Under the pieces are notes generated by a model. It did not search any database and was not told where the DNA came from. It worked only from the letters and a program-made list of their open reading frames with translations. Source: Caldilineales bacterium (GTDB lineage: Bacteria; Chloroflexota; Anaerolineae; J102). From it: a DNA stretch of 64,000 bases. The position numbers and the translations under genes were made by a program. This document shows, one piece after another, positions 39,264-61,835 of the stretch. The stretch is taken from assembly GCA_037443945.1 (NCBI GenBank), contig JBBINH010000004.1:64976-128975 (forward strand). The letters are read 5' to 3'. The number at the start of each line of letters is the position of its first letter. Position 1 is the first letter of the stretch.

Positions 39264-41546
39264 CTAACGCAGGACAAGAGGCCAATAGAGGGCATCGGCC
39301 GGACCGGGCAGGCGCAAGGCCGGGTCGCCGAAGAGGGTCATGGTGTCGATCAGATAATGAGGGCCGCCGTGCTCCTGGTAGTAGGCCTGCTGTGCCGCCA
39401 GGAGGGCCTCACCCAGGGTGCGCCCGGCGTCGTCGAAGAGCGCCGCCATCAGCAATTGCCGAAAACGGTGCTGGTCGAGAGTCCAACCCAGCCCGGAGGG
39501 CGAAATGGCGGCAATGGCGCCGCCATCGGCCCGGCGCTGCATGACCTCGGCCAGGGCAAACAAACCGGGTTGAGGATGGGCAAAGTAGCCGTCCAAGCAA
39601 TTGAAGGTGAGGACAACCGGTAACCGCGGCGCATGAGGACTCAGTTGGGCTACATCAGCGGTCGTCCAGATCGATTCGTGGGCCCAGCGATTGGGCGCAC
39701 CGTGTCCAGCGTATTGGACCATAAACACGCCCGCGTTCAGGGCCGCGGCGATGGCCTGGCGCGCGGCGTCGCCGCTGGTCACCGTGCTCCCCAGATAAAC
39801 CCGTTGCGGGATCAGGTCGACCGGGACATGCGCGGCGATGATGGCATCGCTCAAGGCCGGAAAAGCGCCTGCCTCATCCTCGTTATCGGCCACGAACAAG
39901 ATACGGCGTTGCCAGAGCTCCCGGCGGCGGTCACCGTCGTAGGTCTCGATTTTGGCCACGACGGCTTCGGCTTCGGCCAGGGTATTGACGGCAATGCGGC
40001 CCACGGCCACATCGGGTAAACCGTCACCGTTGGCATCGCCGTAGCGGCTGTCGGCAGGCACCTCGCCCTGCCAGGGATCCACCCAAGCCAGGAAAGGCGG
40101 GACATGCTGCGGTTGGGGCGGGTAGAGGGCCGGATTGTAGCCCTTGAAGTTCCAATGGCCGTCGCCGAAGAGCACAAGATAGCGCGGTTTGGGTTCGGGC
40201 CAGTGGGTTTGGGCCCAGGCCAGCAGCGCCGGTATCGCCCGGGGATGGTTGATGCCGTCATGGAACTCGTCCACGGCATCGGCCCAGAGGACTACCCGCG
40301 CCGAACGACCCTGTCGCTCATGCCAGGCGGCCAGCCGTTGCGCCGCCGGGGCCAGTTCATCGGAGGTGACGATGACCACCTCATATCCCCTGTCCGGCGT
40401 CCGCAATCCGGTAGGCGGCCGCAGGCGCAGAGTGGCCGGCTGCCGGAACGTGGCCTCGTCCTGAAGCCAGTAGCGGGCACCGGCCCCGGCCCGGCTGCGA
40501 AAGCGCAGACCCTGGCCCACCGCGCCCGTCTCCGGCCGCGCACCCACCAGACGTTGCGGCCGGGTCGGATCGGTGATCTCCCAAATGGCGACCCGATGGG
40601 CCCGGTCCCAGCCATCGCTGGCGTACTCCTGAGGGCCATCCTGTTCGGTGGCGAAGGACAGCCACTCCTCCCAGGCGCGGAACAGGCGTCGGTACTCAAG
40701 CTGCCAATAGTTGACATAAAGCCAATCGGCCGATGTGGGCGGCAGGTTGAAGGCGCTGATGCTCACCTCGTTACGACCATGGGCGAACAGCGAGGCCGAA
40801 ACGGGCATGGTAAAGACGCGGGTCGTTTTGCCGGCCCAGGTGTAATCGCCCACCGGAGCGGTGCCAACGGCGATGCTCGTGCGGCGGTTGACCGCCGCGC
40901 GGCTGCTCAGTTCGACCGTGAGTCGAAAACGGCCTTGGGTGGCAGGGTAAGGCACGGTATAGGGCAATGTCACGGTGACTCCCTGGCCCACGCCCACCGG
41001 CCGCAGCTCGGCCCACAGCCAGGTATCGTAGGTGACCGGCGTGGCCGTGTGATAGGTGTACCAATAGCGGTTTTCCTCGGCCCGCACCACGGCGGCGAAA
41101 TCGGTTGGCGGCGCGCCATCACCCAGTGGGGTTGCCTCGATCTCGGTGATCCGTGGACCGGCCGCGGCGCCGATGTCGAGCCAGTAGACCCGTTCGTCGG
41201 TGTACTTTTCCACCATCGGATCCGCGCGCAAACGCTCGCCGAAGAACTCGATGCTATCGCCGGGATCAAAATGGCCGTCCGCCTCGCCGAGCACGCGTAT
41301 AGCGACCGGCTGACCCAGGCTGCTGAGGGCAAAAGTGCGGGGATCCACGGTCTCCACCGCCACCCCGGCCGTCCTCAGGTCCTCAGGGGTAAGGCGGTAG
41401 ATGCCGTCGGCCACGATGCCGATGCGCACGCGGATGACGGGCGTGGTCGCGTCGGCGGCCGATGCCTGTTGCGCCGTAGCCGGCAGGGTGAGAATAGGAC
41501 TGAACAGAAGGCCGATGAGCAGCGAGGCAACGATGGTGCTTCGCAT
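39264..41546 (-). CDS. Secreted peptidase C25 (gingipain-type) family protein, paralog 2.
   Basis: Signal peptide. MVQYAGHGAPNRW...(33 aa)...LTFNCLDGYF His/Cys dyad context. N-terminal domain similar to paralog 1. Confidence 0.7.
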   Translation of the reverse strand: MRSTIVASLLIGLLFSPILTLPATAQQASAADATTPVIRVRIGIVADGIYRLTPEDLRTAGVAVETVDPRTFALSSLGQPVAIRVLGEADGHFDPGDSIEFFGERLRADPMVEKYTDERVYWLDIGAAAGPRITEIEATPLGDGAPPTDFAAVVRAEENRYWYTYHTATPVTYDTWLWAELRPVGVGQGVTVTLPYTVPYPATQGRFRLTVELSSRAAVNRRTSIAVGTAPVGDYTWAGKTTRVFTMPVSASLFAHGRNEVSISAFNLPPTSADWLYVNYWQLEYRRLFRAWEEWLSFATEQDGPQEYASDGWDRAHRVAIWEITDPTRPQRLVGARPETGAVGQGLRFRSRAGAGARYWLQDEATFRQPATLRLRPPTGLRTPDRGYEVVIVTSDELAPAAQRLAAWHERQGRSARVVLWADAVDEFHDGINHPRAIPALLAWAQTHWPEPKPRYLVLFGDGHWNFKGYNPALYPPQPQHVPPFLAWVDPWQGEVPADSRYGDANGDGLPDVAVGRIAVNTLAEAEAVVAKIETYDGDRRRELWQRRILFVADNEDEAGAFPALSDAIIAAHVPVDLIPQRVYLGSTVTSGDAARQAIAAALNAGVFMVQYAGHGAPNRWAHESIWTTADVAQLSPHAPRLPVVLTFNCLDGYFAHPQPGLFALAEVMQRRADGGAIAAISPSGLGWTLDQHRFRQLLMAALFDDAGRTLGEALLAAQQAYYQEHGGPHYLIDTMTLFGDPALRLPGPADALYWPLVLR

Positions 41547-45408: not shown

Positions 45409-45661
45409 AAACCGCAGGATAGGCCCGGCGACGGGGCCAGGCCGTGCCTGCTCATCGGGCTGTGCTTGCCGGCTTAGGTCCGTGGCGATCGGCGGCGGGC
45501 CATAACGTGTCGCCGATGCTATCTTGAGTCTCCGGCAAAAACCCGAACCTGACCAACCCCCCAACCAGGCGCCAAGGCAGTTGCACAGGATGCGATCCGA
45601 TCCCCAGGGAGCTTCGTCCCGATCGAGTTGGGCCGGGCCTGATCGCAACAGCCCTAAGGCT

Positions 45662-47014
45662 TTATGACCGCTCCTCCACCACGAAGGTCGGTACCGTGGA
45701 ACCGCCGCCGGCCGTGACGTTGAGCAAAGCCACGGTCGAAAGGCGGGTCAAACAGCTTGACATAAACTCGCCGTCAAAGCAGAACGGCGCCGTGTCGAAA
45801 AGACGGGGGATGAGTTGGAGTCGACCGTCCACCAGGCCGGGATACGGCTCGGTGGGGATGGTGATGCGCTCTTGCACGATGTACGGCTCGGTCAGCGCCG
45901 TTTGCACGGCCGCGGCCCAGGCGCTATCGTCCACCTCCCAGCCCAGGACGATGCCTTTGCCACCGTATTCGTCGTTGGGCTTGAGGACAAGCTGCGCGCG
46001 ATGGGCGAGGACGAAGGGGATCAGATCGACCTGTTCGCCGTTGTATTCGGTATAACGCTCGGTCACGAGACGGGTCCAGGGCACATGGGCGCGAATGGCG
46101 GCGTTTTCCTCGGCGCTAAACAGGTGGCGATGGCGTTCATCGCTCAACACGGCCAGACTGGCTTTCTTATAGAGCAGTTTACAGGCCGGGGGATTGACCA
46201 TGCAGACGGCCCGGTCGCGCACGGCGCGCAGGATGGGCTGATCCAGACCGCCCCAACGTACCAACTCGGAGGTGAGCACGCGTTTGTAGATGAGATCGAC
46301 GGCAAAATCGCCGATATAGAGCCTGCCGTTCCGGTACTCCGCCGCACGCGGATCGGCGATGATGCACTCCAGCCCGTGGCTGCGAAAATAATCGGCAAAA
46401 AGAACGAACTCGGAATAGGTGGGCACCTCGCTCCAATCGAGGATGGCCACCCGCGGACGCTCACGCCGGCCCCGCCATTGCCGATAACTGTCGAGCAACG
46501 CATGAAGGGTATCGGCGCGCGCGGGCAAAGGTCGCACCTGATAGCGCTTCATGAACTCGCCCATGACCGGCAGCCCCAGAAAAACCTCCGAGAGGACATC
46601 GTTATAAGCCGCCGCCGCCGGCGTTTCGGCATTGTACTCGGTCACCTTCAGGGTCAAGGTGGCAGGGTCGAAGAAGGTGTCGAGACGGGCCAGAGGCGTC
46701 GGACTGCGATAACCGGGGTCTAGTCCGACCAGTTCCTCTTCCCACTCCAACAAACCGAACTGGCGTCGGAAGTCCGGATCGGCCAGGGCAAGGCGGTGGA
46801 TGCGGGCGAAGGCCGCCAGGAGACGGGCCACCCGCTGCTGAAGATAGCGGAAGTGCTCCGGGGTCAGGAAGCGCGGGCGCAGGACGGTGCACAGAGGCCG
46901 ATTGCCGAAGAAAAGACCGTAGCGTTGTTGCTGCTCGTCCAGTTGCGCCTGCGAGGCCTGGGCCAGCTCTTCGTCGAGCCGATCGTGGTAGAAGCGAATG
47001 GCGTCGTCTAGCAT
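45662..47014 (-). CDS. Circularly permuted ATP-grasp type 2 / glutathionylspermidine-synthetase-like amidoligase family protein.
   Basis: 450 aa. Sequence pattern and size consistent with the CP-ATP-grasp family. Last gene of a 4-gene minus-strand operon. Confidence 0.6.
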   Translation of the reverse strand: MLDDAIRFYHDRLDEELAQASQAQLDEQQQRYGLFFGNRPLCTVLRPRFLTPEHFRYLQQRVARLLAAFARIHRLALADPDFRRQFGLLEWEEELVGLDPGYRSPTPLARLDTFFDPATLTLKVTEYNAETPAAAAYNDVLSEVFLGLPVMGEFMKRYQVRPLPARADTLHALLDSYRQWRGRRERPRVAILDWSEVPTYSEFVLFADYFRSHGLECIIADPRAAEYRNGRLYIGDFAVDLIYKRVLTSELVRWGGLDQPILRAVRDRAVCMVNPPACKLLYKKASLAVLSDERHRHLFSAEENAAIRAHVPWTRLVTERYTEYNGEQVDLIPFVLAHRAQLVLKPNDEYGGKGIVLGWEVDDSAWAAAVQTALTEPYIVQERITIPTEPYPGLVDGRLQLIPRLFDTAPFCFDGEFMSSCLTRLSTVALLNVTAGGGSTVPTFVVEERS

Positions 47015-47035
47015 AGGTTGGCGACGGGGATGAAC

Positions 47036-47977
47036 TCACGCGGGCGCGCGACCGGCCGTGAACAGGGCGTCCCAGCGCAAATGGTGCACCTGCGGCCGCG
47101 GGTTTTTGGCCAGCCGGATGGCCATATCGGCCATATGCTTGACCGCCCACTCGAAATAAAACGGCGTCAAAGAATTGATATCCATATCCGGTGCCGGATT
47201 CATGAAATCGATGGCATAAGGAACACCACCGCGAATCGCCCATTCCACCGAGTTCATATCATAACCCAGCGCCCGCACGAGTTTGAGTGAATCTGCAACA
47301 ATACGCGCGCCTAATTCGGGTGTCAGATGCTCATGCTCGACGATGTATCTGCGCTCACGCGGGTCATATTTGATCGGCATGACCTCCTCTTGGCCCAGGC
47401 AAATACAGCGCACATAATGCTCCCATTCGATATATTCTTGCAAAATCATCGTGCGCAGACCGGTATGATTGTAATAGTAAATTAGCTCGTCTTTGCTATG
47501 ACAGATGAAAACGTCTTTCCAACCGCCGCCATGAGCATCTTTGAGCACGCAGGGTAAACCGACATAGGCGATAATTCCATCCCAATCAAGAGGATATTTG
47601 AGATTGCGTAAACTCTCTGTGTGAACAATTCCTGGAACATAATCTTTATTCGGCAAAACGACCGTTTTTGGCGAAGCAACTCCTAGTTTGGTTGCCAACG
47701 ACGCACCAAAAAACTTATCGTCCGCCGTCCACATGAAGGGATTATTAACGACAGTGACTCCTTGCAAAACGGCATGTTTCAAAAACGAGCGATAATAGGG
47801 GACTTCGTGCGAAATACGGTCGATGATGACGGCATAGGGCACGGGTTCATCCATCATGGTCCCGCCCAACATGACCATTTCGGCAATAACCCCTTCCTCG
47901 CGTCGATTGACTTCCTCGATAAAAGCCGGTGGAAACGACCATTCCCGTCCGACTAAAAGTCCTATTTTCAGCGTCAT
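47036..47977 (-). CDS. ATP-grasp ligase (RimK/glutathione-synthetase-like), markedly lower GC than surroundings.
   Basis: ATP-grasp motifs (LPCVLKDAHGGGWKDVF; ILQEYIEWEHYVRCICLG). Strong RBS CAGGAGG 6 nt before ATG 47975-47977. Local GC visibly near 50% versus 65-68% in flanks. Confidence 0.7.
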   Translation of the reverse strand: MTLKIGLLVGREWSFPPAFIEEVNRREEGVIAEMVMLGGTMMDEPVPYAVIIDRISHEVPYYRSFLKHAVLQGVTVVNNPFMWTADDKFFGASLATKLGVASPKTVVLPNKDYVPGIVHTESLRNLKYPLDWDGIIAYVGLPCVLKDAHGGGWKDVFICHSKDELIYYYNHTGLRTMILQEYIEWEHYVRCICLGQEEVMPIKYDPRERRYIVEHEHLTPELGARIVADSLKLVRALGYDMNSVEWAIRGGVPYAIDFMNPAPDMDINSLTPFYFEWAVKHMADMAIRLAKNPRPQVHHLRWDALFTAGRAPA

Positions 47978-48012
47978 AGCCACCCTCCTGTACAGACGAT
48001 GCAAGCCATCCT

Positions 48013-48729
48013 TCAATCATGACCGCTCAGGTACAGCCGGATCATCTGCTGCCACCAGGGCCAGTCGTGGGCCCATCCCTTCCAGATGCGCAGCGCATGC
48101 CAGATACCCTTGTCCCACAGCAACTGCGAGAAACGTTCGGTATCCCCGCGGCGAGGTTCGGTCTCGCTGGTGGTCAGGATGATGTCCATCCGGCGCATGG
48201 CGGCCAGACGATGGGGATCGTGCTCGTTGGCGATAAAATCAACGGGATTGTGAAAATAGACATTGTCATCATAGTGGCCGTCCAGCCATTCGCGGATGTC
48301 GTACACGCCGTTCATGGCCAGCACGCGGCCGACGAGTTCGGGGTAACGAAAGGAAAAATTGACGGCATGATAGGCGCCGAAACTGGCCCCGGTGACGATG
48401 AGGAAGGGGTTGGGATTTTGTTGGGTGAAAGGGATCACCTCGTGGCGCAGGTACTGGTCGTATTGCACATGCCGCCAGGCGCGATCACCGGGCCATTTCC
48501 AGCGAGCATACCAGCTCTCTTCGTCCACACTGTCCACACAAAACACCTGCAGCCAGCCACGTTCGATCGGGTCGGCCATGACGGCGATCATGCCCCGGTC
48601 TTCCCATTCGTAAAACCGCCCTTTGGAGGTCGGGAAAACGAGCAAGCGGGCGCCGGCGTGCCCGAAGACGAGCATTTCCATATCCCGGCCCAGCGCCGGA
48701 CTGTACCAGCGATGGTACTCGCGCTTCAT
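48013..48729 (-). CDS. Esterase-family alpha/beta hydrolase.
   Basis: GASFG nucleophile-elbow (GxSxG) motif. Putative-esterase family pattern. Confidence 0.55.
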   Translation of the reverse strand: MKREYHRWYSPALGRDMEMLVFGHAGARLLVFPTSKGRFYEWEDRGMIAVMADPIERGWLQVFCVDSVDEESWYARWKWPGDRAWRHVQYDQYLRHEVIPFTQQNPNPFLIVTGASFGAYHAVNFSFRYPELVGRVLAMNGVYDIREWLDGHYDDNVYFHNPVDFIANEHDPHRLAAMRRMDIILTTSETEPRRGDTERFSQLLWDKGIWHALRIWKGWAHDWPWWQQMIRLYLSGHD

Positions 48730-49523
48730 GGTCGCAAAGAAGCCGCAGTGGGAAGGGTCGGGCGGCTATGGCGCCCACGCCATGCCTCGGCGGCCTGCAA
48801 AAAGCCCCGGAAGAGCTGCCGACTGACGGGGTCGCGCGCCACAAATTCCTCCGGATGCCATTGTACGGCCACGGCGAACTGACCGTTAGGCGTCTCAATG
48901 CCCTCGATCAGGCCGTCCGGGGCAAAGGAACTCGGTCGCAGGATGGGGGCCAGGGTCTTGATGCCCTGATGGTGCATGCTGTTGACCGGGAGTTCGGTCC
49001 GGCCCAGCAGATGGCCCAGCCGCGAATCTGCTTCGATGCGGACGGTATGGCTGATGCGGTCGCGAGAGTACTCGCCGTGATAGGGGTAGTAATCATGCTT
49101 GATGGCACCGGGGTGCTGGGCCAAGACGTCCTGATACAGAGTGCCGCCGGCAGCGACATTGAGCACCTGCAGACCCCGACACACCCCCAAAATGGGCTTG
49201 TGGTCGGCCAAAGCCCAGCGCACCAGCGTCACCTCCACCAGGTCACGTTCCGGATCGATGCGGCCGCACAATTCGGTCTTGGTCTCGCCGTACATGGCCG
49301 GGTCCATATCGACCCCACCCGGCAGGAAAATCCCGTCGAGTTGTTCGTAGATGGCGCGTAGAGTGTCCAGGTCATCGGCCAGAAGCGGGATGACCCAGGG
49401 CAAGGCGCCCTGCGAGGTCAGGGAGGTGATGTAGGTATGACCCATGATCCAGCAGCGCGGGGCTACGCCGGGGATGGGTTCCTGGTTTTGGGTGGTAATG
49501 CCGATAACCGGACGGGATGACAT
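48726..49523 (-). CDS. Class I glutamine amidotransferase-like peptidase C26 (PuuD-type gamma-glutamyl hydrolase).
   Basis: GVCRGLQ catalytic Cys motif and HHQ. 4-bp overlaps with the downstream esterase gene. Confidence 0.75.
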   Translation of the reverse strand: MSSRPVIGITTQNQEPIPGVAPRCWIMGHTYITSLTSQGALPWVIPLLADDLDTLRAIYEQLDGIFLPGGVDMDPAMYGETKTELCGRIDPERDLVEVTLVRWALADHKPILGVCRGLQVLNVAAGGTLYQDVLAQHPGAIKHDYYPYHGEYSRDRISHTVRIEADSRLGHLLGRTELPVNSMHHQGIKTLAPILRPSSFAPDGLIEGIETPNGQFAVAVQWHPEEFVARDPVSRQLFRGFLQAAEAWRGRHSRPTLPTAASLRP

Positions 49524-49729: not shown

Positions 49730-51376
49730 TTATCGCCGCGCCAGCATCGTCTCCACCAATTTCTCCTCCCGCGCCGGAAACAGCCGCGCTGCCACCTCGA
49801 CAAGCAGACCGTAGATCGCTGCCCCGTACACCACGGCCAAAAGCAGGAACACCCACCACGCTTCCGGCGTCAGGAGTCGCCCCAGCCCCAGCAACAGCAT
49901 TATCGGCGCCGTCAGCAGCGGCATGCCCAGGAGCGCACTGAAAACGGTGAAAAAGCTGGCCTTGGCCTCATTGAGCGGTGCTTGCCCGCGTTCCAGGTCC
50001 ATGTAGTACGGGAAAAGCAGCCCGGTGAGATGGGTGAGACCGTTACAGACAAGTTGCAGCGGCACGATGGCGCCCATCGCATAGCCGAGCACGGCGGCAT
50101 CCCGCCGCGCCAACCAGGCGACAAGCACGGCAACCAGCAGCAGAACGACGGCCACGGCCAGATTGAGCAGACCGTTGCTGAGCAAAATCAGCCGCCGCGG
50201 GACCGGCGCCAGCAGCAGCGCTGCAATGCCCACATGGTCGTAGGTGCATAGCTGATTGTGCCCTATCAGGGTCACAAAAAAGGCCGTCAACCCCGCCAGG
50301 CCCAATCCGACACTCCAGCTCGGAAACGGCAGTTGTCCGCCAAAATAGGCCACCAAACCCAGCACAACGGGCAGGAAAAACAGTCGCGCCGTGATCGGGC
50401 TGCGCACAAAGTTGAGCCAGTCCTTGTAGAGAAGCATGAGGAGATCCCCCAACCAGGGCCGATGTCGTCCCAACGCCGAGGCCCAGCCGCCGATGCGGCT
50501 CGGCCTGACCGGCGAACGCCGTCGCACGGCCAGGCGCCACAGCTCGCCGAAGAAAAGCCGCCGCATGAGGCGCAAATGCAATCCCAAACCGGCGACGAGC
50601 AGGGCCGCCAGGGCCATCGTCCACCCCAGCCAGACCTCCCAAGCGCTTCGGCGCACGGCCACAAAGGCCTGCGCCAGCCAACCCGAAGGGACCCAGCGCA
50701 ACCGACGCAGCAGATCGAGCTGCGCCAAAAGCGCCTGCGGCTCGGGAAGGGGCTCATTGCGCAACATGCCCACCTGCAAGGAAAGTTGCCCGTAGATGAC
50801 GGGCAAAACCGGCACCAGGCCGATCACCACCATCAACAGGCGCAGACGTCGGTCTGCTGCCGCCAGGGCCAACGCATCATCCACGATGGCTTTGAGCACA
50901 ACCACAACGCCGAAGAACAGCAACACCGACACCGTCATCGGCACAACCTGCCCGATCGCCCGCATGTAGCCGACCATAGCGGCCAGCAGAAAAAAGCCCG
51001 TACTCAAAGCAGCCAACCCGATGCTGTTGAGCAACAGACTTCCCACGACCAAATCCCGAAAAGCCACGGGCAAATGAAAGAGTCGGGTCAGGTCCAGGGG
51101 TTCGGTGATCTGCTGATGAGAGGCCGGTGTTATCAGCCAGATGAGCAACAGAAAGGTAAAGGCCAGGGCCAGGATGTGCCCGCCGCCGACGGCGTCGGTT
51201 AGCCGCAGGCCCACACCCATGATGACGGCGATAACCAAAAGCCCCGGCAAAAGCAACAAGCCCAAAAACAGCACGCCCACTACACGGCCTGTGTCCTGGA
51301 CTGTGCCCCGGCGCAGCGAATTGCGCAGCAGGCAACCTTGCAACCAGAGCAGGGTACGCAGTTCGTGGCTCATCAT
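49730..51376 (-). CDS. Polytopic membrane protein, probable ABC-2-type permease partner of the upstream ATPase.
   Basis: 548 aa, many TM segments. Follows the ABC ATPase with a 4-nt gap. Confidence 0.5.
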   Translation of the reverse strand: MMSHELRTLLWLQGCLLRNSLRRGTVQDTGRVVGVLFLGLLLLPGLLVIAVIMGVGLRLTDAVGGGHILALAFTFLLLIWLITPASHQQITEPLDLTRLFHLPVAFRDLVVGSLLLNSIGLAALSTGFFLLAAMVGYMRAIGQVVPMTVSVLLFFGVVVVLKAIVDDALALAAADRRLRLLMVVIGLVPVLPVIYGQLSLQVGMLRNEPLPEPQALLAQLDLLRRLRWVPSGWLAQAFVAVRRSAWEVWLGWTMALAALLVAGLGLHLRLMRRLFFGELWRLAVRRRSPVRPSRIGGWASALGRHRPWLGDLLMLLYKDWLNFVRSPITARLFFLPVVLGLVAYFGGQLPFPSWSVGLGLAGLTAFFVTLIGHNQLCTYDHVGIAALLLAPVPRRLILLSNGLLNLAVAVVLLLVAVLVAWLARRDAAVLGYAMGAIVPLQLVCNGLTHLTGLLFPYYMDLERGQAPLNEAKASFFTVFSALLGMPLLTAPIMLLLGLGRLLTPEAWWVFLLLAVVYGAAIYGLLVEVAARLFPAREEKLVETMLARR

Positions 51377-51380
51377 CGCC

Positions 51381-52151
51381 TCATAGCCAATCCAGATGGT
51401 CGCCCTGGTTCACCTCGGCCTGCACAAGCCGCAGGAACACCTCCTCCAGGCTGGCCCGATCGTGGGTGGCCGCCTGACGGCGCAGGGCCTCCAGATCACC
51501 CTGGGCGATAAGCCGGCCGTGGTCGATGATGGCCACCTCATCGCAGAGCTTCTCTACCAACTCCATGATATGGGTCGAAAAGAACACCGTCGTCTTCTGC
51601 TGGCGCACCAGCGACAGCAACAGGTCCTTGATGGCCCGCGCCGAAATGGCATCCACGCCCTCGAAGGGTTCGTCCAGGAAAAGGACGGGCGGATTGGGCA
51701 ACAGAGCCGCGGCCAACGCCAGTTTTTTCTTCATCCCGGTAGAATAGTCCACCGCCAGGTCGTGACGACGGTCGGCCAGGTCCAGGCGTTCGAGCAGCCG
51801 CTGGCGACGACGGGCGATGGTGGCCTCGTCCAGGTGGTGCAGCCGTCCTACCAGTTCCAGATACTCATCGGCGGTCAGGCGTTCGTACAGGCCCAGGTTT
51901 TCGGGCACAACGCCGATGCGCCGCTTGACCTCAAGCGGCATCCGCACCACATCGTAACCGGCCACCAGGGCCGTGCCCGCCGTCGGTCGCATCAGCCCTG
52001 TCAGCATCTTCAGTGTGGTCGTTTTCCCGGCGCCGTTAGGCCCCAAAAAGCCGAACATGACCCCCGCCGGCACGGCGAGATCGAGATGGTCAACGGCCAG
52101 CACATGGCCAAAGCGCTTGACCAGACCGTAGGTTTGGATGATGGGGGTCAT
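51381..52151 (-). CDS. ABC transporter ATP-binding protein.
   Basis: Walker [10 protein letters not shown], signature motif, Walker B LFLDEP. Confidence 0.85.
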   Translation of the reverse strand: MTPIIQTYGLVKRFGHVLAVDHLDLAVPAGVMFGFLGPNGAGKTTTLKMLTGLMRPTAGTALVAGYDVVRMPLEVKRRIGVVPENLGLYERLTADEYLELVGRLHHLDEATIARRRQRLLERLDLADRRHDLAVDYSTGMKKKLALAAALLPNPPVLFLDEPFEGVDAISARAIKDLLLSLVRQQKTTVFFSTHIMELVEKLCDEVAIIDHGRLIAQGDLEALRRQAATHDRASLEEVFLRLVQAEVNQGDHLDWL

Positions 52152-52180
52152 GGTCGGGCAGGTGGTCGTCCCCGGCTTCC

Positions 52181-53182
52181 TCAGGGACCCGGCGTTGCCT
52201 CCGGCGTGGTTGCAGGCGTCGGCGTCGGCGTAGCGATAAAATCGCTCATCGCTTTGTTGACAAAATCATCCAGATTGAAACCGGCAATTTGTACGTAATA
52301 GGGCGATTCTGAGTATTTGGCGTAGTAATTGTTTGTTTCGGGATCTTTGGCACCGATCTGCAAGACGTGCGTCTTGCTCTCTCCTGCGGCCGGTCGCACC
52401 GTGATCGTGACGGTGGTAGCCGGTGGATTCAGACCCCAGGCCGTCAGGGTTGCGGCATCGGCCGTGATCCCCAACGGACGGGTCAGGTTCAATCCCGCCA
52501 GGCGACCGACCAGGGATTGCACGGCAAACGTGTCCAGCGTCTGTTCCGGACCGAGGCCGGCCAGTTTCCAGGCATCGCCCTCTTTCGTGAATTCGAGCAC
52601 ACCCTGGGCGTTTTCGATGCGAACGGCGGCGATATCGGTGCCGGGAATGCTCACGTACTGGCTGTCGATGTAGCTGATGGGCTCGACGGTGGCATCAAAA
52701 GCGGCCAGATTGGCGGCGAGATAGACGCGGTCCTGGCCCTGGAGCCGGAAATGGGTGGCGCCGGCACGCGGGGCCGTGCCCAGATAGAGGGTATAGCGTT
52801 CCCCGCGCACGGTCTCCAGGTCCAGACGACGCACGAAGGCATCTTCGGCCACCTGCAAACGGGCGTGGCTGGCCGCGGTTTCGGCCACCAGCCGACCGGT
52901 TTTCAGACCGACCAGTTTTTCCAGCAGGGGATTGATGCGGTCGGCCTGCACCGGATAGTCCCCCGCTTCGGGCAAAACCCAGCCCTCGCCCCGACGGGCC
53001 AGCTTGAGCTGTTTGCCGGCGTTATCGGCAATCGTCAAGGCCAGGATATCGGCGGTCGTCAGACCGGGAAAGACGGGTTCGCTCGTGGCCTGCGAAGGTC
53101 GCGGCCAATAGACCAGGACCACCAGGCCCAATTGGACGATCAACACGGCGATGAGGAGGGGGATAAGACGGCGACGCAACAT
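52181..53182 (-). CDS. DUF4340-like accessory protein of GldG-type ABC systems (N-terminal TM anchor, C-terminal PT-rich tail).
   Basis: Signal-anchor. Position immediately after the GldF/GldG fusion. Confidence 0.5.
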   Translation of the reverse strand: MLRRRLIPLLIAVLIVQLGLVVLVYWPRPSQATSEPVFPGLTTADILALTIADNAGKQLKLARRGEGWVLPEAGDYPVQADRINPLLEKLVGLKTGRLVAETAASHARLQVAEDAFVRRLDLETVRGERYTLYLGTAPRAGATHFRLQGQDRVYLAANLAAFDATVEPISYIDSQYVSIPGTDIAAVRIENAQGVLEFTKEGDAWKLAGLGPEQTLDTFAVQSLVGRLAGLNLTRPLGITADAATLTAWGLNPPATTVTITVRPAAGESKTHVLQIGAKDPETNNYYAKYSESPYYVQIAGFNLDDFVNKAMSDFIATPTPTPATTPEATPGP

Positions 53183-53185
53183 GGC

Positions 53186-56074
53186 TCAACCCTCCTTTCC
53201 TTCCGCCACGGCCAGCCGGGTCGGCGGCAAGAGGGGCATCGGTTTTTCATGACGGCGACGGGTGTTCCAGATCACGCCGATGGCGACGAGGATAACCAGG
53301 GCGAGGACATAATTGGCGATCTCCCAAAAGCGGCGGTCGCTTTCCGAAAGCGGCCGCAACACGCGCGCCTGCGTCCCCCGAGCGCGGATGCCGAGGAGGT
53401 TCAAGTCCTGAACCGACCAGTCCACGGCGTTCTGGAAGAGCTGCAGGCTGTGGAGGGGGCTTTCGGGATTGAAGGTGGAGCTGATCTGGAAGACCACGTC
53501 GTTGAGGAACTCGTTGCTGGCGATGATCACGAGCCGGGCCGATTCCGGCGATTGATCGATGGTCGTGGCCTGCAGGACGGCCACGTCCGGGGTCGTACCA
53601 TCGCCTGTATCTTCCGGCGCCGTCAGGGTCTTGCCTTTGAAGGCACTGGTGAAAACACCCTGCACGGCAACGGCCAGAGGCCGCGAACCGGTTTGCCCTT
53701 CGATGGGGAAGCCCAAACCGGGATACGTGACGGGGTCGGGCTGGGGATTGGCATTGGCCGTAACCCACGATTGGGGGCTGGACGAGAGCAGCACCGTGGC
53801 CTTGAGATCGGGCCGGATCGAGATGGGGGAAGCCCAACTCAGGGTAATCGCAGGCAGATTGGCGGTGATGGGATGATCACCGGCCATGCCGTCGCGACGG
53901 ATCGCCACAAACGGTGGGTAATTCAGGGCCTGGATCTCCTGGATCTGGACTCCACCCACGTTGCGGATAACCGGCACAGGGAAGGGTTCGTTTTGGGGAT
54001 CCATCACCAGTGTGTTCTCCACGGTGATCCCATAGCTCGCCAGCAGGGGTTCGATGCCGTTTTGGACCGGCGAGAGGGTCAGTTGGCCGGTGAAGGTATC
54101 TTGTCCGAGGAGATAGCGGCCGGAAGCGGCGACGATAGCACCTCCCCGCATGAGGAATTGGTCGATGGCGAAACGCTGGATATCGGTCAGGTTTTGCGGC
54201 GCCACCAGCACCAGCGTATCAATGCCGGCTGGGACCTGGCCGTTGCCGAGATCGACATCGCGCACTTCGTACTCGCGAGCCAATTGTTCACGGATGGTGC
54301 GATACGTGCTCAACGGCGGTTGCATCCGGCCGAACATATCGGGTTGGGGCGTTTCCGGCGGTGCCCAGAAGCCGATCACCTTGAGAAAGCCGGTCGCACT
54401 GCGCTTGAGACCGGCCTCGATGGCCGTCCGCACCTCGGCTTCACTGGCGCCGGCGCCGGGGTAGATGATCTGAACCTTGTCGCCTGCCTCGAGGACCAGG
54501 TGCAAAAAGTAGGTATCGGTTGCAAAGAGCGAGGCGGCAAACGGTCGCAGCCCGTAGGTCTCGAAGAGCGATTGCGGCGTTACGGGACTGCCGGAAGCCG
54601 TGGGATCCACCTGATTGAACAGGAGCTTGCCCCGGGCCTTGCCGGCCATTTCGTTCGCCACCCGCGCCACCGTGGTCGGTACGTCGCGTAGGTCCGGCGG
54701 CAGGGTGGCCGGTGTGGTATACAGGGTAAGTCGGGCCGGTTCGTCCAGCGCCGCCAGGATGGCATCGGTGCTCTGGAAACCCTGGACGACCTTGTTGATC
54801 ACGCGGGTCAGGTCGTACTCCAGATTGCGCAGCCGCACATCCAGGGTGCCGTCCCCGCGCGGATTGACTTCGATCAGGTCCTGGAAGTTGATGACCTCGC
54901 TTTGATCGCCATAGCGGATGAGGATATCGAAATAGGCGTTGACGATGGTATCCTCGTAGCGACCGGCCACCCGGAAGGGTGTGGGCCGGATGCCGTAGGT
55001 CTGGTTGGCCTCTTCTTCCAGTTCGGGATTTCGGGTTGGGTCGACGACTTCGGCCCGTACCCGGCCGCGGCCGGCGATTTCGTACTCGCGCAACATGTCG
55101 CCGACGGTGGGGACAAGCGGTGCCAGCAGCGGATGGGTTTTTTCGCTGATGTAGGCGCGAATGAGCAGGGGTTCGGTCAGCCCGGCCAGGACATCGCGGG
55201 TGGGCTGCGAGAGACTGTACTCGCGACCCTGGGTCAGATCCAGCCGCAATCCGTTCAGGGGGGCCAGCCAAAGGTTGAGGACGATGAGGTTGAGGCCGAT
55301 GAGCAAGGTGGTCAGACCGATCCGACGCCGATAGGCCAGGGTGTTCTCGCCTTCGCTCCAGCGCTTGCTGTCCACGGAAACGGCATTGAGGACCAGGAAC
55401 AGGGCGGTCAGGGCCAGGTAGTAGATCAGGTCGCGCAGATCGATGACCCCGCGCAAAATGCTCTCAAACCGACTGCCGGAGCCCAATCCGCGCAGGACCT
55501 GGGCCACGGCAGGCGGGGCGGCATTGACCACGGCCGGCGTACCGAGAAGATAGAAAATCCCCGCCACCAGGATGGCCAGGATGAGGGCCACCAGCGAGTT
55601 GTCGGTGCGGGAGGAGACGAACAAGCCGATGGCTGCATAGGCGGCGGCCAGGAGCAAGGAGGCCAGATAGCCGCCGATGACCGGGCCCCAATCGAGATTC
55701 CCCAACAGCGAGACCGTGATGGGAATGAACAGGGTAAGGCCCAGGGCCACGGCCACCATGGTCATGACGGCCAGGAATTTGCCGATAACGAGTTGCCATG
55801 CCTCAACCGGCAGGGTGAGGAGGATTTCAAGCGTGCCCGTCTCCTCCTCGTCACTCCACTGGCGCATCGTCAAAGCCCCTACCAGGAAGATGAGCAGGAG
55901 CGGCAGACTGCGGAACAGGGGCCGCACATCGGCGATGCCGCGGGCAAAAAAGGCATTGGCCCAAAACAGCGAGAACAGGGCCAGCGCCAGAAAAACGCCG
56001 ATGAAAATCAACGCCATCGGCGAACCGAAATAGGCAGCGATTTCTTTGCGGGTAAGGGACAAAGCCTGCTTCAT
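53186..56074 (-). CDS. Fusion of ABC-2 family permease (GldF-like) and GldG-like auxiliary component.
   Basis: N-terminal ~250 aa has six TM helices with the ABC-2 permease pattern. Large extracytoplasmic region and C-terminal TM helix as in GldG. Confidence 0.7.
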   Translation of the reverse strand: MKQALSLTRKEIAAYFGSPMALIFIGVFLALALFSLFWANAFFARGIADVRPLFRSLPLLLIFLVGALTMRQWSDEEETGTLEILLTLPVEAWQLVIGKFLAVMTMVAVALGLTLFIPITVSLLGNLDWGPVIGGYLASLLLAAAYAAIGLFVSSRTDNSLVALILAILVAGIFYLLGTPAVVNAAPPAVAQVLRGLGSGSRFESILRGVIDLRDLIYYLALTALFLVLNAVSVDSKRWSEGENTLAYRRRIGLTTLLIGLNLIVLNLWLAPLNGLRLDLTQGREYSLSQPTRDVLAGLTEPLLIRAYISEKTHPLLAPLVPTVGDMLREYEIAGRGRVRAEVVDPTRNPELEEEANQTYGIRPTPFRVAGRYEDTIVNAYFDILIRYGDQSEVINFQDLIEVNPRGDGTLDVRLRNLEYDLTRVINKVVQGFQSTDAILAALDEPARLTLYTTPATLPPDLRDVPTTVARVANEMAGKARGKLLFNQVDPTASGSPVTPQSLFETYGLRPFAASLFATDTYFLHLVLEAGDKVQIIYPGAGASEAEVRTAIEAGLKRSATGFLKVIGFWAPPETPQPDMFGRMQPPLSTYRTIREQLAREYEVRDVDLGNGQVPAGIDTLVLVAPQNLTDIQRFAIDQFLMRGGAIVAASGRYLLGQDTFTGQLTLSPVQNGIEPLLASYGITVENTLVMDPQNEPFPVPVIRNVGGVQIQEIQALNYPPFVAIRRDGMAGDHPITANLPAITLSWASPISIRPDLKATVLLSSSPQSWVTANANPQPDPVTYPGLGFPIEGQTGSRPLAVAVQGVFTSAFKGKTLTAPEDTGDGTTPDVAVLQATTIDQSPESARLVIIASNEFLNDVVFQISSTFNPESPLHSLQLFQNAVDWSVQDLNLLGIRARGTQARVLRPLSESDRRFWEIANYVLALVILVAIGVIWNTRRRHEKPMPLLPPTRLAVAEGKEG

Positions 56075-59803: not shown

Positions 59804-60568
59804 TTATCCTCCCTTGAAGAAACGCTTGACCTTGGCGACCACCAACTCACGACGCAAGGCCATGATTTTGTGGCCCGGATTCACATCGCTGGGACACACG
59901 GCGCTGCACTCCATGGCGCTGTGGCAACGCCAAACCCCGTTATCGTGGTCCACATCGGCAAAGACCTCGGCCGGGCTGCGCTCGCCTGTTACCAGGGCCC
60001 GATAGGCAGCGGCCAATCCGGCCGGACCGATGAACGCCGGGTTGGTATTGGCCACCGGACAGGCCGACAGACAGAGATTGCATTCAATGCAGTCTTCGTA
60101 ACGGCTAAACCGCTCGACCCCGGGGGGCGTTTCGGCCTCGGGGTTGAACTCGCTGGCCCGCACCAGCCGCATGCCGGCCGGCGCAAAATGCCCGGCAAAC
60201 GGCGTCATATCCACAACCAGGTCGGCGATCGGCGGCGCCGCTGCCAGCGGTTCCACCACGACCACATCGCCGCCCTGCTCGAGCAACCGGGCCACGCAGC
60301 CCAACTGTTCGCGGCCGTTGATGCGCATGCCGCACGTGCCGCAAGAGGCATGATGACAGGAATGGCGATAGAGCAAGGTGCCGTCCTGGGTTGCCCGGAT
60401 CTCCTCCAGCGCATCCAGCACCGTGGTCACGGCATTGGCCTGAACTTGAAAGGTGTCATAGCGCGGGGGATCGATGGTGCCCGGTTTGTAACGCCAAACC
60501 TTGAGTGTAATCGTTTTATTTTGGCCAAAAAGCCCGTTGTTATTCATAACAACATGCTCTTTTCGCAC
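59804..60568 (-). CDS. sdhB: Succinate dehydrogenase/fumarate reductase iron-sulfur subunit (SdhB/FrdB family).
   Basis: 2Fe-2S motif CHHASCGTCGMRING...C, 4Fe-4S CIECNLCLSACP, 3Fe-4S CHSAMECSAVCP. Confidence 0.85.
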   Translation of the reverse strand: MRKEHVVMNNNGLFGQNKTITLKVWRYKPGTIDPPRYDTFQVQANAVTTVLDALEEIRATQDGTLLYRHSCHHASCGTCGMRINGREQLGCVARLLEQGGDVVVVEPLAAAPPIADLVVDMTPFAGHFAPAGMRLVRASEFNPEAETPPGVERFSRYEDCIECNLCLSACPVANTNPAFIGPAGLAAAYRALVTGERSPAEVFADVDHDNGVWRCHSAMECSAVCPSDVNPGHKIMALRRELVVAKVKRFFKGG

Positions 60569-60668
60569 TGATTGTAACTATACTGTCCAATACAGACTCA
60601 TCGGCTTGTGAGTCGCAAAAATGGATGATTTTAAGCGATTCGCAAATCGCCTGCTTGGCTATTGCGTT

Positions 60669-61835
60669 TTACTGATAATAAGCCCAATAAGGCAATAAAA
60701 CGACGTCTTTCGTCCGACACGGGGCATCAATGCCCAATTTGGCACAGACCACATCGGCCGTGGCCTCGGCCATGGCGCGCATGGTCGTGCCTTTGCCGCC
60801 GGAGATGGTAACCAGACCTTCGACCCCATCGCGCACCTTGTGGTCGAAGCACTTGAACGTGCGGGGCAGGGCGCGGCCTTCCTGGGCGCTGCCTTCGGCG
60901 ATCAACGGCCGGGCCGCCGACCAGGCCGCCCGCATGGGGGCATGGCGCACCGCCGGGATCAGCTCGCCGCCCTTCTCAAACATCAGCCGGACATGGTCTT
61001 CGGGCAGGCCTAACCGGTCCGGGTCCTCAACCGTCCACGATGTCGTGCCGATGACCGATAGCCCCCGCTGGGGCACGATGATGTCTCCGTCCGAGGGCTT
61101 GTTGAGGCGGTTGATGACCATGTTGCACCAGCGCCCGCGCACGGCGACCATCACGCCCGGCGTCGGCTTGACAGGCACGCGTGCCCCTGCCATCTCGCTG
61201 ACCTTTTCGGCCCAGGCGCCTGTGGCATTGACCACGATGTCGGCTTTGATGTCGTATTCCTGGCCTGTCACGTGGGAACGCACCCGCACGCCGGTCACGA
61301 TCCCGGCCGTGCGCAACATGCCGATAACCTCGGTATAGGGACGGATGTCGGCGCCGTTGTGTTTGGCCGTGGCAAAAAAGCGCATGGGCAACCGCCAGCA
61401 GTCCATCGTCGCATCGGGGACCTGCACCCCCAGTTTGACCTGGGGATTGATATGGGGCTCCAGGCGTTTGACCTGTTGGGCCGTCAGCACCCGGGTGGGA
61501 ATATGGCAGGCTTCGCAGCCGGCCAGGAATTTCTCCAGGTAAGCCACGTCGTCATCGGTAATGGCCACGAACAGGCCGTCGTTCTCCTCAAACGAACCGG
61601 GCGCGATCTTGCGCAGGATCCGGTTCTCTTCGATGCATTCGATGGCCGACTCTTGATCGTTGACGGCGTAGCGACCGCCGCTATGCAACAGACCGTGATG
61701 CCGACCCGCCGTCCCCGATGTCAGTTCGCCACGCTCCACCAAGGTGACTTTCAGACCGCGCAGGGTCAGGTCGTGGACCAGAGCCGCTCCGGTGGAACCA
61801 CCGCCGATAACCACCACATGGAATTGGGTTGCCAT
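60669..61835 (-). CDS. glpA: Glycerol-3-phosphate dehydrogenase flavoprotein, GlpA-like (lacks C-terminal BFD-like domain).
   Basis: VVIGGGSTGAA FAD motif. Extended colinear similarity to E. coli GlpA (GRHHGLLHSGGRYAVNDQESAIECIEENRIL; RLNKPSDGDIIVP; VTISGGKGTTMR). Confidence 0.8.
   Translation of the reverse strand: MATQFHVVVIGGGSTGAALVHDLTLRGLKVTLVERGELTSGTAGRHHGLLHSGGRYAVNDQESAIECIEENRILRKIAPGSFEENDGLFVAITDDDVAYLEKFLAGCEACHIPTRVLTAQQVKRLEPHINPQVKLGVQVPDATMDCWRLPMRFFATAKHNGADIRPYTEVIGMLRTAGIVTGVRVRSHVTGQEYDIKADIVVNATGAWAEKVSEMAGARVPVKPTPGVMVAVRGRWCNMVINRLNKPSDGDIIVPQRGLSVIGTTSWTVEDPDRLGLPEDHVRLMFEKGGELIPAVRHAPMRAAWSAARPLIAEGSAQEGRALPRTFKCFDHKVRDGVEGLVTISGGKGTTMRAMAEATADVVCAKLGIDAPCRTKDVVLLPYWAYYQ

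Follow-up and report, generated by a model that had tools for sequence, protein, structure and literature searches.

A conserved amidoligase cassette in a Caldilineales bacterium with an ATP-grasp ligase gene of atypically low GC content

Gene organization

The 64-kb stretch of Caldilineales DNA analyzed here (the window) contains an operon of four minus-strand genes in the order C26 hydrolase, esterase (EST), ATP-grasp ligase (AG), and circularly permuted ATP-grasp ligase (CPAG). An earlier note on this DNA, made from the sequence alone, had described four such genes, and ORFs were found at the coordinates it gave (Table 1). It had also described 4-bp overlaps between the genes; this holds for the C26/EST junction (ATGA, 48726-48729), but EST and AG are 35 bp apart and AG and CPAG are separated by 21 bp. 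The GGAGG ribosome-binding site it had reported for AG occupies 47984-47988, with 6 nt between it and the ATG at 47977. This ATG, rather than the TTG at 48016, is the start codon, since the AG orthologues all start with MTLK. Two ABC exporter genes lie 3′ of the operon within the window. The terminator-like hairpin suggests that the operon may end ahead of these genes.

Table 1. Positions of the operon genes and associated sequence features in the window.
Feature	Position	Strand	Evidence
Sigma-70-like promoter candidate, TTGACT-17-TAGACT with extended TG, 5′ of the C26 gene	49613..49641	-	Consensus scan, pattern match only
C26 / class-I glutamine-amidotransferase-fold gamma-glutamyl hydrolase, PuuD-like, 265 aa	48726-49523	-	Pfam PF07722, motifs
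Esterase-D / feruloyl-esterase / FphF-type alpha/beta hydrolase (EST), 238 aa	48013-48729	-	Pfam PF00756
EST-AG spacer, 35 bp, carrying the GGAGG ribosome-binding site; 5′ boundary of the low-GC tract	47978..48012	-	Sequence
ATP-grasp ligase (AG), RimK/LysX/Ddl-like, 313 aa	47036-47977	-	Foldseek, motifs
Low-GC3 tract, AG codons 1 to ~274	47155..47977	-	In-frame sliding GC3; clade codon alignment
Circularly permuted ATP-grasp type 2 ligase (CPAG), 450 aa	45662-47014	-	Pfam PF14403
Terminator-like hairpin with T-rich tail, 3′ of CPAG	45547..45570	-	Consensus scan, pattern match only

Identity of the gene products

AG is a member of an unnamed, very highly conserved family, the identity being 74-84% across Chloroflexota, Gemmatimonadota, and Planctomycetota. 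Comparison of its AlphaFold model (mean pLDDT 69) with the PDB using Foldseek reveals top matches that are all ATP-grasp ligases (RimK, ArgX/LysX, Ddl, and PsnB; probability 1.0), the best structural matches having E-values of 3e-11 to 2e-8. The TM-scores are low, at approximately 0.4, which reflects the moderate quality of the model. Residues K146, G150-G152, E245, D257, and N260 align with the motifs of D-Ala-D-Ala ligase 3r23, and the ATP-binding Lys, the Gly-rich loop, and the acidic/Asn Mg2+ ligands are invariant in 33 homologues. On the basis of the modeled fold and these motif residues, AG belongs to the ATP-grasp superfamily. No Pfam or NCBIfam model covers the protein. It scores 17.2 bits (E = 0.004) against RimK PF08443, under the cut-off of 21, and 38.2 bits against TIGR00768, below the cut-off of 143.4; it is thus RimK-like in fold without being a member of the curated family. 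Ligases of the RimK/ArgX/LysX/Ddl type share the Lys, Gly-loop, and Mg-binding motifs with AG, but their sequence identity to it is only 15-18%, and, unlike the RimK/LysX-type ligases, AG has no S6 or LysW-like gene linked to its locus.

The C26 hydrolase matches Peptidase_C26 (PF07722) with 198.9 bits, and its triad can be read in the translation as Cys115 (GVCRG) with His223 and Glu225 (WHPE). Its score against the equivalog model for the PuuD gamma-glutamyl-GABA hydrolase (NCBIfam NF008471) falls below the cut-off (138.9 vs 266 bits). EST exceeds the PF00756 cut-off of 22 with 26.1 bits, and a profile search matches PDB entries 5vol, 7xrt, and 6vh9. The residues G114-A-S116-F-G118, D182, and H221 are unchanged in 25 of 25 orthologues; the triad (Ser116, Asp182, His221) was assigned by position, not structure. 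CPAG, at 37.9 bits, clears the cut-off of 32 for CP_ATPgrasp_2 (PF14403), the match covering residues 122-425. A profile search with CPAG gave only a partial match, at profile positions 324-440, to PDB 3n6x (E = 2.3e-9), an uncharacterised "putative glutathionylspermidine synthase," and there was no Pfam GSP_synth match; CPAG appears to be a distant relative of the glutathionylspermidine-synthetase-like proteins. The family, fold, and motif results bear out the gene identities proposed earlier.

The conserved cassette and its predicted function

EST, AG, and CPAG form the core of a widespread and strongly conserved amidoligase cassette across Chloroflexota, Gemmatimonadota, and Planctomycetota, in which AG is the best-conserved member and the invariable partner. 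EST adjoins in nearly all related loci. A YbdK/GCS2 carboxylate-amine ligase gene (GCS2) is located directly 3′ of CPAG in 33 of the 61 loci with room for it. Other accompanying genes among the 82 loci compared specify C26 hydrolases (approximately 20), S9 peptidases (13), and second esterases (10). No GCS2 homologue is present within the 64-kb window. No experimental characterization of cassette members was found in the literature searched.

A similar neighborhood system, built around CP_ATPgrasp_2, was reportedly predicted in 2009 by Iyer, Abhiman, Burroughs, and Aravind, writing in Mol Biosyst, to make small peptides, the prediction being one of comparative genomics. The context of CP_ATPgrasp_2 is said to comprise a GCS2-type COOH-NH2 ligase, an alpha/beta-hydrolase, and an amidohydrolase. 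The likeness lies in CPAG, which scores over the PF14403 cut-off, in the related loci, which combine it with these same three kinds of enzyme, and in the linked hydrolase and amidohydrolase/peptidase, EST and C26 both being found in the window. The differences are that the invariable partner here is the RimK/LysX-like AG, that the linked GCS2 is a property of the cassette family and not of the window locus, and that the amidohydrolase in the window is a C26 protein (class-I GATase fold). A paralogue of every extended-cassette family (GCS2, ATP-grasp ligase, GspS-like permuted ATP-grasp, PF00756 esterase, and PuuD-like C26) also occurs in glutathione and glutathionylspermidine metabolism, which employs gamma-Glu-Cys ligase, GshB, GspS, S-formylglutathione hydrolase (esterase D), and gamma-glutamyl hydrolases. 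However, no cassette member reaches the equivalog cut-off for the named enzymes, and the resemblance is between sets of families and not one of tested function or thiol chemistry.

The cassette probably represents a system for small peptides or gamma-glutamyl amides. We infer its chemistry from family membership alone: AG and CPAG would each convert a carboxylate into an activated acyl-phosphate and couple it to an amine, with the YbdK/GCS2 ligase presumably performing the same chemistry in about half of the related loci. The ligases would jointly build a small peptide or gamma-glutamyl-type amide, which the Ser-Asp-His esterase and the Cys-His-Glu C26 amidohydrolase may trim, release, or recycle. 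The general idea of the earlier note, that a small amide-linked product is synthesized and turned over, fits the conserved neighborhood.

It is unlikely that the locus is a graspetide-type RiPP cluster in which AG cross-links precursor side chains through ester or amide bonds, the esterase and C26 act in processing, and the ABC exporters are responsible for secretion. PsnB, a graspetide ligase, does appear in the Foldseek list for AG, from rank 27, and exporter genes do follow the operon, but these genes show no conservation with the cassette across related loci and a terminator-like site stands between them and the operon. As the earlier note had observed, no small precursor ORF is evident nearby: there is no credible candidate in the operon-flanking spacers of the window and no conserved short ORF in the intergenic gaps of 80 related loci. 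The conserved partners are more amide ligases (CPAG and GCS2), not precursor/leader peptidases.

Composition of the AG gene

AG had been described as having approximately 50% GC, with A/T-ending codons, and as being AT-richer than its neighbors and the window average. The calculations agree. Its GC content of 0.503 is the lowest for any 942-bp stretch in the window (z = -5.0; 942-bp segments elsewhere in the 64 kb have a mean of 0.632, an sd of 0.026, and a minimum of 0.570). It thus lies far outside one standard deviation; a value inside that limit is what the earlier note had named as counting against its reading. GC3 is 0.554 in AG compared with 0.756 in C26, 0.753 in EST, and 0.761 in CPAG. 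Sliding GC3 reveals a tract with sharp edges: the last 30 codons of EST have a value of 0.90 and the first 30 codons of AG 0.47. Within the tract the 30-codon windows range from 0.27 to 0.73, mostly at or below 0.60, with the minimum of 0.27 near 47650; GC3 then recovers to 0.80-0.84 in the last ~40 codons of AG and is 0.77 in CPAG.

The dip is purely synonymous, and the AG protein is under strong purifying selection. The first two codon positions of AG have a GC content typical of its family (z = -0.5). Among the codons, the ratio NCG/(NCG+NCC) is 0.59 in AG vs 0.31 in the flanking genes, GGA is enriched, and TTA occurs four times in AG and never in its operon partners. Codon tables of Ktedonobacterales loci with low GC (flank GC3 0.54-0.57) describe AG better than those of its own operon do (-1.14 vs -1.35 nats/codon).

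In 59 other loci the difference between AG GC3 and the neighbor mean is -0.004 ± 0.027, whereas in the window it is -0.203, some 7 sd away. Sister lineage L093, which has the same gene order, has an AG GC3 of 0.77. The dip is found only in a small clade of close relatives in which AG is 95-97% identical; across six independent assemblies of these, AG GC3 is 0.48-0.69 vs 0.74-0.82 for the flanks. One of the relatives, L095, carries a 293-bp spacer with a GC content of 0.30 at the EST-AG junction, which is the exact 5′ edge of the dip. Synonymous divergence of AG within the clade is approximately equal to, or somewhat above, that of the flanking genes. Since six independent close-relative lineages possess the dip and AG and its flanks have diverged about equally at synonymous sites, the event, whatever its nature, is not recent.

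Possible replacement or in-place shift of AG

The best explanation, to which we assign a probability of approximately 0.5, is that AG is an allele from a lower-GC, unsampled relative that replaced the resident gene in place. The exchange would have occurred in the ancestor of the small Caldilineales-type clade, the resident allele being swapped for an orthologous one from a fairly close, lower-GC donor. The exchanged stretch would run from the spacer upstream of AG as far as codon ~274; the nucleotide-conserved 3′ part of the gene probably served as the anchor for one end, whereas the other may have arisen by illegitimate joining within the EST-AG spacer. The foreign allele would have been functional, and would have diverged alongside its neighbors since.

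The formation of mosaic operons through gene displacement in situ is an established concept (Omelchenko et al. 2003, Genome Biol 4:R55, as cited in PMC3542582). As in such operons, a single gene here has a foreign composition while gene order and function are kept. The classic cases are known by phylogenetic incongruence, whereas the AG protein tree is congruent, and for this reason the argument for replacement is built upon synonymous composition, the tract boundaries, and the relict AT-rich spacer. GC3 mosaicism inside the cassette, seen also in other loci (an example being the EST gene of L051), lends it further support. Neighbor-joining protein trees (100 bootstraps) of EST, AG, and CPAG, congruence here being the other condition that the earlier note had named against its reading, return the same Caldilineales-type sister group for all three, drawn from L093, L002, L003, L004, and L012, and the AG distances to these loci match the prediction from the EST distances. 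AG GC3 is at least 0.77 in every sampled member of this group; replacement would thus require a low-GC relative, as yet unsampled, as the donor. Synonymous codon identity of AG against 80 loci gave no donor signal, a metagenome DNA scan for the donor recovered only the same clade, and no AG copies were found on viral contigs or plasmids. Of the marks of gene displacement, AG thus shows atypical composition but neither an incongruent phylogeny nor an identifiable donor or vector. The lateral replacement within a native operon suggested by the earlier note is plausible and remains the best account of the compositional outlier, although the trees are congruent and no donor emerged.

The main rival, which we regard as a serious but distinctly less probable reading, is that no replacement occurred and that the synonymous sites of AG in this clade evolve toward AT. 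The cause could be selection in favor of rare or AT-ending codons, by which the translation or folding of a very constrained enzyme is tuned; alternatively, AG alone could have lost the force that keeps GC3 high elsewhere. The full congruence of the protein trees and the failure to find a donor speak for such a shift. A pooled two-state non-stationary likelihood model also favors it, with continuing AT drift from a GC-richer root (root 0.69, equilibrium 0.33) beating amelioration (2dlnL 9-14); two-fold sites agree with the AT-ward direction. Terminal branches reveal no net GC gain, which speaks against replacement. Amelioration does fit the four-fold sites, with a root of 0.48 and movement toward the control equilibrium (0.85), which counts against the shift. 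The shift is further favored by the L085/L099 lineage, in which strong-to-weak (GC-to-AT) changes, counted per strong (G/C-ending) site, are roughly threefold as frequent in AG (20/86) as in CPAG (11/153), and by the lineage-specific changes, which are scattered point substitutions with no patches. The rare TTA codons and the wide spread of AG GC3 among close relatives (0.48 to 0.69) are likewise consistent with a shift in place. It accounts poorly for a tract that stops inside AG, ~40 codons short of the stop codon, for the AT-rich spacer at the 5′ edge of this tract in L095, and for the preference for NCG over NCC among GC-ending codons, which simple AT pressure does not predict. Moreover, in other high-GC lineages these positions show no site-specific preference for codons ending in A or T, and no mechanism is known that limits such a shift to a single gene of an operon.

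Were AG AT-rich everywhere, through its amino acid content or conserved nucleotide features, the dip would be uninformative about this locus. The overall GC content of AG in other loci is indeed usually 0.02-0.05 under that of the flanks, and the first two codon positions in the window are family-normal; but AG GC3 follows host GC3 in the 59 loci compared, and the anomaly in the window is confined to synonymous sites, which refutes this explanation. Least probable of all is an assembly or binning chimera in which reads from a lower-GC organism were spliced into the contig, conceivable for so conserved a gene in a metagenome-assembled genome, since assemblies made independently, by different pipelines and from different samples (NCBI, Logan, ENA, and JGI), repeat the finding of a low-GC AG between high-GC flanks, with a dip of varying depth and with AG divergence matching that of the flanks.

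Organization of the operon

The operon comprises genes for a gamma-glutamyl hydrolase (C26), an esterase (EST), an ATP-grasp ligase (AG) and a circularly permuted ATP-grasp ligase (CPAG), as listed in the following table.

Genes of the minus-strand operon, their positions in the window and their Pfam matches
Gene	Position	Strand	Product and match
C26	48726-49523	minus	265 aa; Pfam Peptidase_C26, 198.9 bits
EST (esterase)	48013-48729	minus	238 aa; Pfam PF00756, 26.1 bits (cut-off 22)
AG (ATP-grasp)	47036-47977	minus	313 aa; Pfam RimK below threshold, E = 0.004
CPAG (circularly permuted ATP-grasp)	45662-47014	minus	450 aa; CP_ATPgrasp_2 PF14403, 37.9 bits (cut-off 32)

In NCBIfam, C26 additionally matches PuuD, at a score below threshold, and AG matches the RimK family weakly. 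The 4-bp overlaps that the earlier note described throughout the operon are restricted to the C26/EST junction, EST and AG being separated by 35 bp and AG and CPAG by 21 bp. The GGAGG ribosome-binding site noted for AG is indeed present, 6 nt 5′ of its ATG, and the start is fixed at that codon because all orthologues open with MTLK. A promoter-like site 5′ of C26 and a terminator-like hairpin 3′ of CPAG suggest that the operon is distinct from two ABC exporter genes further downstream. Two other promoter-like sites, at 47768-47741 and 47326-47298, fall within the AT-rich tract of AG. The operon matched no RNA family in Rfam, and the PADLOC defence-system models gave zero matches.

Past the two exporters lies a gene for a 760-aa peptidase C25 of the gingipain family (39264-41546). 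Four genes are found 5′ of the operon (49730-56074), encoding a 548-aa multi-pass membrane protein that matches nothing in Pfam, an ABC ATPase, a DUF4340 protein, and a 962-aa fusion of an ABC-2 permease with an ABC_transp_aux (GldG-like) domain. None of these genes is conserved with the EST-AG-CPAG cassette.

Base composition of the ATP-grasp gene

AG is AT-richer than its neighbours and the window average, as had been noticed by eye: its GC content is 0.503, whereas all other 942-bp stretches of the 64-kb window average 0.632 (sd 0.026, minimum 0.570), which places the gene at z = -5.0. The GC content at third codon positions (GC3) is 0.554 in AG versus 0.756 in C26, 0.753 in EST and 0.761 in CPAG. 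At the 5′ edge GC3 drops from 0.90 in the last 30 codons of EST to 0.47 in the first 30 of AG; it remains low, with a minimum of 0.27, to approximately codon 274 (window position ~47155), and recovers to 0.80-0.84 in the last ~40 codons. The anomaly is real and sharply bounded. It is also synonymous, since the first two codon positions have a GC content typical of the family; these positions are uninformative as a record of a low-GC past, the protein being too conserved (z = -0.5). Elsewhere in the window GC falls markedly in just one patch (60400-60750, GC ~0.45 over 300 bp), which includes an AT-rich spacer between two ORFs, with ends at 60571 and 60669, and the terminal parts of both.

Independent assemblies from NCBI, Logan, ENA and JGI yielded close relatives whose AG is 95-97% identical. 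All share the dip, which rules out an assembly chimera as its source. Its depth varies, AG GC3 being 0.48-0.50 in L085 and L099, 0.63 in L095 and 0.67-0.69 in L084, L086, L088 and L098, with flanking genes at 0.74-0.82. In L093, the next lineage out, AG is 83% identical and the four-gene order is kept, with a normal AG GC3 of 0.77. Codons with synonymous differences are about as frequent in AG as in the flanks, or moderately more so (fractions of 0.40 against 0.30-0.37 for the window versus L084; 0.32 against 0.22 versus L085), so the underlying event is older than the split of the clade's lineages. Within the clade non-synonymous differences amount to 3-5% versus 32-40% for synonymous ones; strong purifying selection acts on the AT-rich allele.

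A spacer of 293 bp with a GC content of 0.30 separates the EST stop codon from the AG ribosome-binding site in L095 (1842-2134), exactly at the 5′ edge of the dip. It is also represented in L096 and L097 (1-193), and has no match in Rfam and no similarity to any other locus fetched. The other close relatives have short EST-AG spacers, AT-rich in all but the window. Another AT-rich spacer in the cassette is the AG-CPAG gap of the Ardenticatenaceae locus L037 (283 bp, GC 0.33, flanks 0.56).

For comparison, 80 AG loci were fetched from one-genome-per-species contigs, and EST, AG and CPAG were extracted from each. At the 59 loci outside the window's clade that have complete copies of the three genes, subtracting the mean GC3 of the two neighbours from that of AG gives -0.004 ± 0.027, and AG GC3 follows its host over the range 0.5-0.99; the corresponding difference in the window is -0.203. 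A low GC3 consequently does not characterise AG as a family. Gene-level GC3 mosaicism within the cassette is seen at other loci too and may recur: GC3 differs by 0.1-0.13 between cassette genes in L051 (EST) and in L028 and L057 (EST plus AG versus CPAG).

Replacement or shift in place

The reading we favour, at a probability of about one half, is an ancestral replacement of AG in place, the incoming allele stemming from a lower-GC relative that has not been sampled, gene displacement in situ being a known kind of event. Lateral replacement inside the operon, which the earlier note had proposed, thus stays plausible on composition, boundaries and codon usage, but is left unproven by congruent trees and the lack of a donor. 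In its favour are the abrupt tract boundaries, one of which falls inside AG at a nucleotide-conserved stretch, the AT-rich spacer kept by L095 at the 5′ edge, the GC3 mosaicism of the cassette at other loci, and a codon dialect that differs in more than A/T enrichment. The ratio NCG/(NCG+NCC) is 0.59 in AG versus 0.31 in the flanks, compared with a usual difference of 0.06 ± 0.11 elsewhere; GGA is enriched, and TTA occurs four times in AG versus never in its operon partners. At third codon positions the AG base profile is nearly identical to the one found for AG of L008 (Ktedonobacteraceae, flank GC ~0.53), and codon tables of such low-GC loci describe AG better than that of its own operon.

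Against replacement, the AG phylogeny does not depart from that of the flanking genes. In neighbour-joining trees with bootstraps the clade adjoins the same Caldilineales-type group (L093, L002, L003, L004 and L012) for EST, AG and CPAG, and AG distances to this group are as predicted by the EST distances. AG GC3 is at least 0.77 in every sampled member of the group. None of the 80 loci has excess synonymous codon identity to the window AG, metagenome contigs scanned with a degenerate DNA pattern yielded only one more clade member (L099), and no donor emerged among further close relatives; no AG homologue was found on viral contigs or plasmids. Neither segment-wise synonymous divergence nor clustering of lineage-specific changes disclosed secondary recombination patches, the lineage-specific changes being scattered rather than clustered.

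A lineage-specific synonymous shift of AG toward AT, without replacement, is the main rival and somewhat less likely; part of the polarisation data speaks for it. Two-state non-stationary likelihood, applied to the six-taxon clade and yielding a surface with two peaks, favours a GC-richer root drifting toward AT for pooled and two-fold sites, whereas four-fold sites favour a root of low GC that ameliorates toward 0.85, the value at which the control genes are in equilibrium. Polarised by parsimony, third-position changes on terminal branches reveal no net GC gain, but the counts are small, the control genes likewise have an AT excess, and parallel amelioration would mislead the method. A preference for AT-ending codons at specific sites is absent in other lineages, which weighs against the shift; no family-wide selection for such codons at given sites was found.

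A gene can hold a strong, long-lived compositional anomaly while its protein tree agrees with those of its neighbours, a caution for methods that infer horizontal transfer from composition or phylogeny alone. If it did arise in place, the shift would represent synonymous evolution of an uncommon, gene-specific kind. Neither the anomaly nor the cassette overturns current understanding.

Predicted activities and possible product

A structure model of AG (pLDDT 69) matches RimK, ArgX/LysX, Ddl and PsnB; K146, E245, D257 and N260, which belong to the ATP-grasp motifs, can be aligned to Ddl and do not vary. The C-terminal part of CPAG matches 3n6x, a putative glutathionylspermidine synthase. EST, whose nearest relatives are feruloyl esterases and FphF, has the invariant GxSxG serine, aspartate and histidine, and C26 retains Cys115, His223 and Glu225. 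On these grounds all four enzymes look active.

The reading of the operon as a system for synthesis and turnover of a small amide-linked product is a reasonable one. Two or three ATP-dependent carboxylate-amine ligases would build a small peptide or gamma-glutamyl-type amide via acyl-phosphate intermediates, and the serine hydrolase and cysteine amidohydrolase would trim or recycle it. Iyer et al. 2009 and the Pfam description of CP_ATPgrasp_2 reportedly agree with such a mechanism. A literature search found no paper and no experimental work on the cassette. In line with the earlier failure to see a precursor-peptide ORF, a short-ORF search found none conserved with the cassette, which makes a graspetide-type cluster unlikely.

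Glutathione/glutathionylspermidine metabolism has a paralogue of every family in the extended cassette, which makes a thiol-peptide-amine conjugate an attractive guess. In its boldest form, a long shot drawn from this analogy, EST-AG-CPAG, with or without the YbdK/GCS2 carboxylate-amine ligase (GCS2) and C26, would make a new low-molecular-weight gamma-glutamyl peptide-amine conjugate like glutathionylspermidine, conceivably a thiol cofactor common to Chloroflexota, Gemmatimonadota and Planctomycetota, with the constrained ATP-grasp enzyme as key ligase. Linked to this is the possibility that selection keeps the AT-rich, rare-codon AG in the clade as a translational throttle. A protein substrate is also possible for AG, because its closest structural relatives act on protein C-termini.

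Distribution and neighbourhood of the cassette

At least 580 species genomes, distributed over three phyla, contain the cassette, and its central ATP-grasp enzyme, conserved about as strongly as a translation factor, has neither a family model nor a name; every named one of its more than 8000 database homologues is labelled hypothetical. It offers a clearly delimited target for finding enzymes and metabolites in little-studied bacteria of soil and wastewater. In the 80 best loci, drawn from the at least 580 species genomes where a relative exists, AG is 74-84% identical; these represent Chloroflexota (several classes), Gemmatimonadota and Planctomycetota, and include complete chromosomes. The wider AG family forms 366 clusters at 50% clustering (E of 1e-30 or better).

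The order EST-AG-CPAG is retained almost everywhere, at 53-82% (EST) and 56-71% (CPAG) identity to the window copy. A GCS2 gene (PF04107; NCBIfam NF010039, 516 bits) lies directly 3′ of CPAG in 33 of the 61 loci with room for it, and is absent from the 64-kb window. Of the full set of 82 loci under comparison, ~20 have C26, 13 have an S9 peptidase and 10 have a second PF00756 esterase. In the Caldilineales-type loci L002 and L003 the AG-CPAG interval (~620-780 bp) holds an insert, a predicted 178-aa membrane protein whose N-terminal region is rich in Lys, Ala, Gln and Pro; L012 carries another insert, of 139 aa, at the same position.

Longer AG homologues have C-terminal extensions that are mostly low-complexity charged sequence, in which no enzymatic domain was found except one weak partial GCS2 match. 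The homologue P0264 (647 aa) has a partial GCS2 match in its C-terminal part and could have arisen by fusion or by read-through, both of which are consistent with a functional link between the AG and GCS2 ligases. Three more distant homologues at 44-46% identity (P0160, P0190 and P0141) possess long tails: one with ~15 PKRRGRPAK (AT-hook-like) repeats, one Lys/Ala/Pro-rich and histone H1-like, and one acidic, ending in a helix-hairpin-helix-like motif. Such tails hint at nucleic-acid or nucleoid association.
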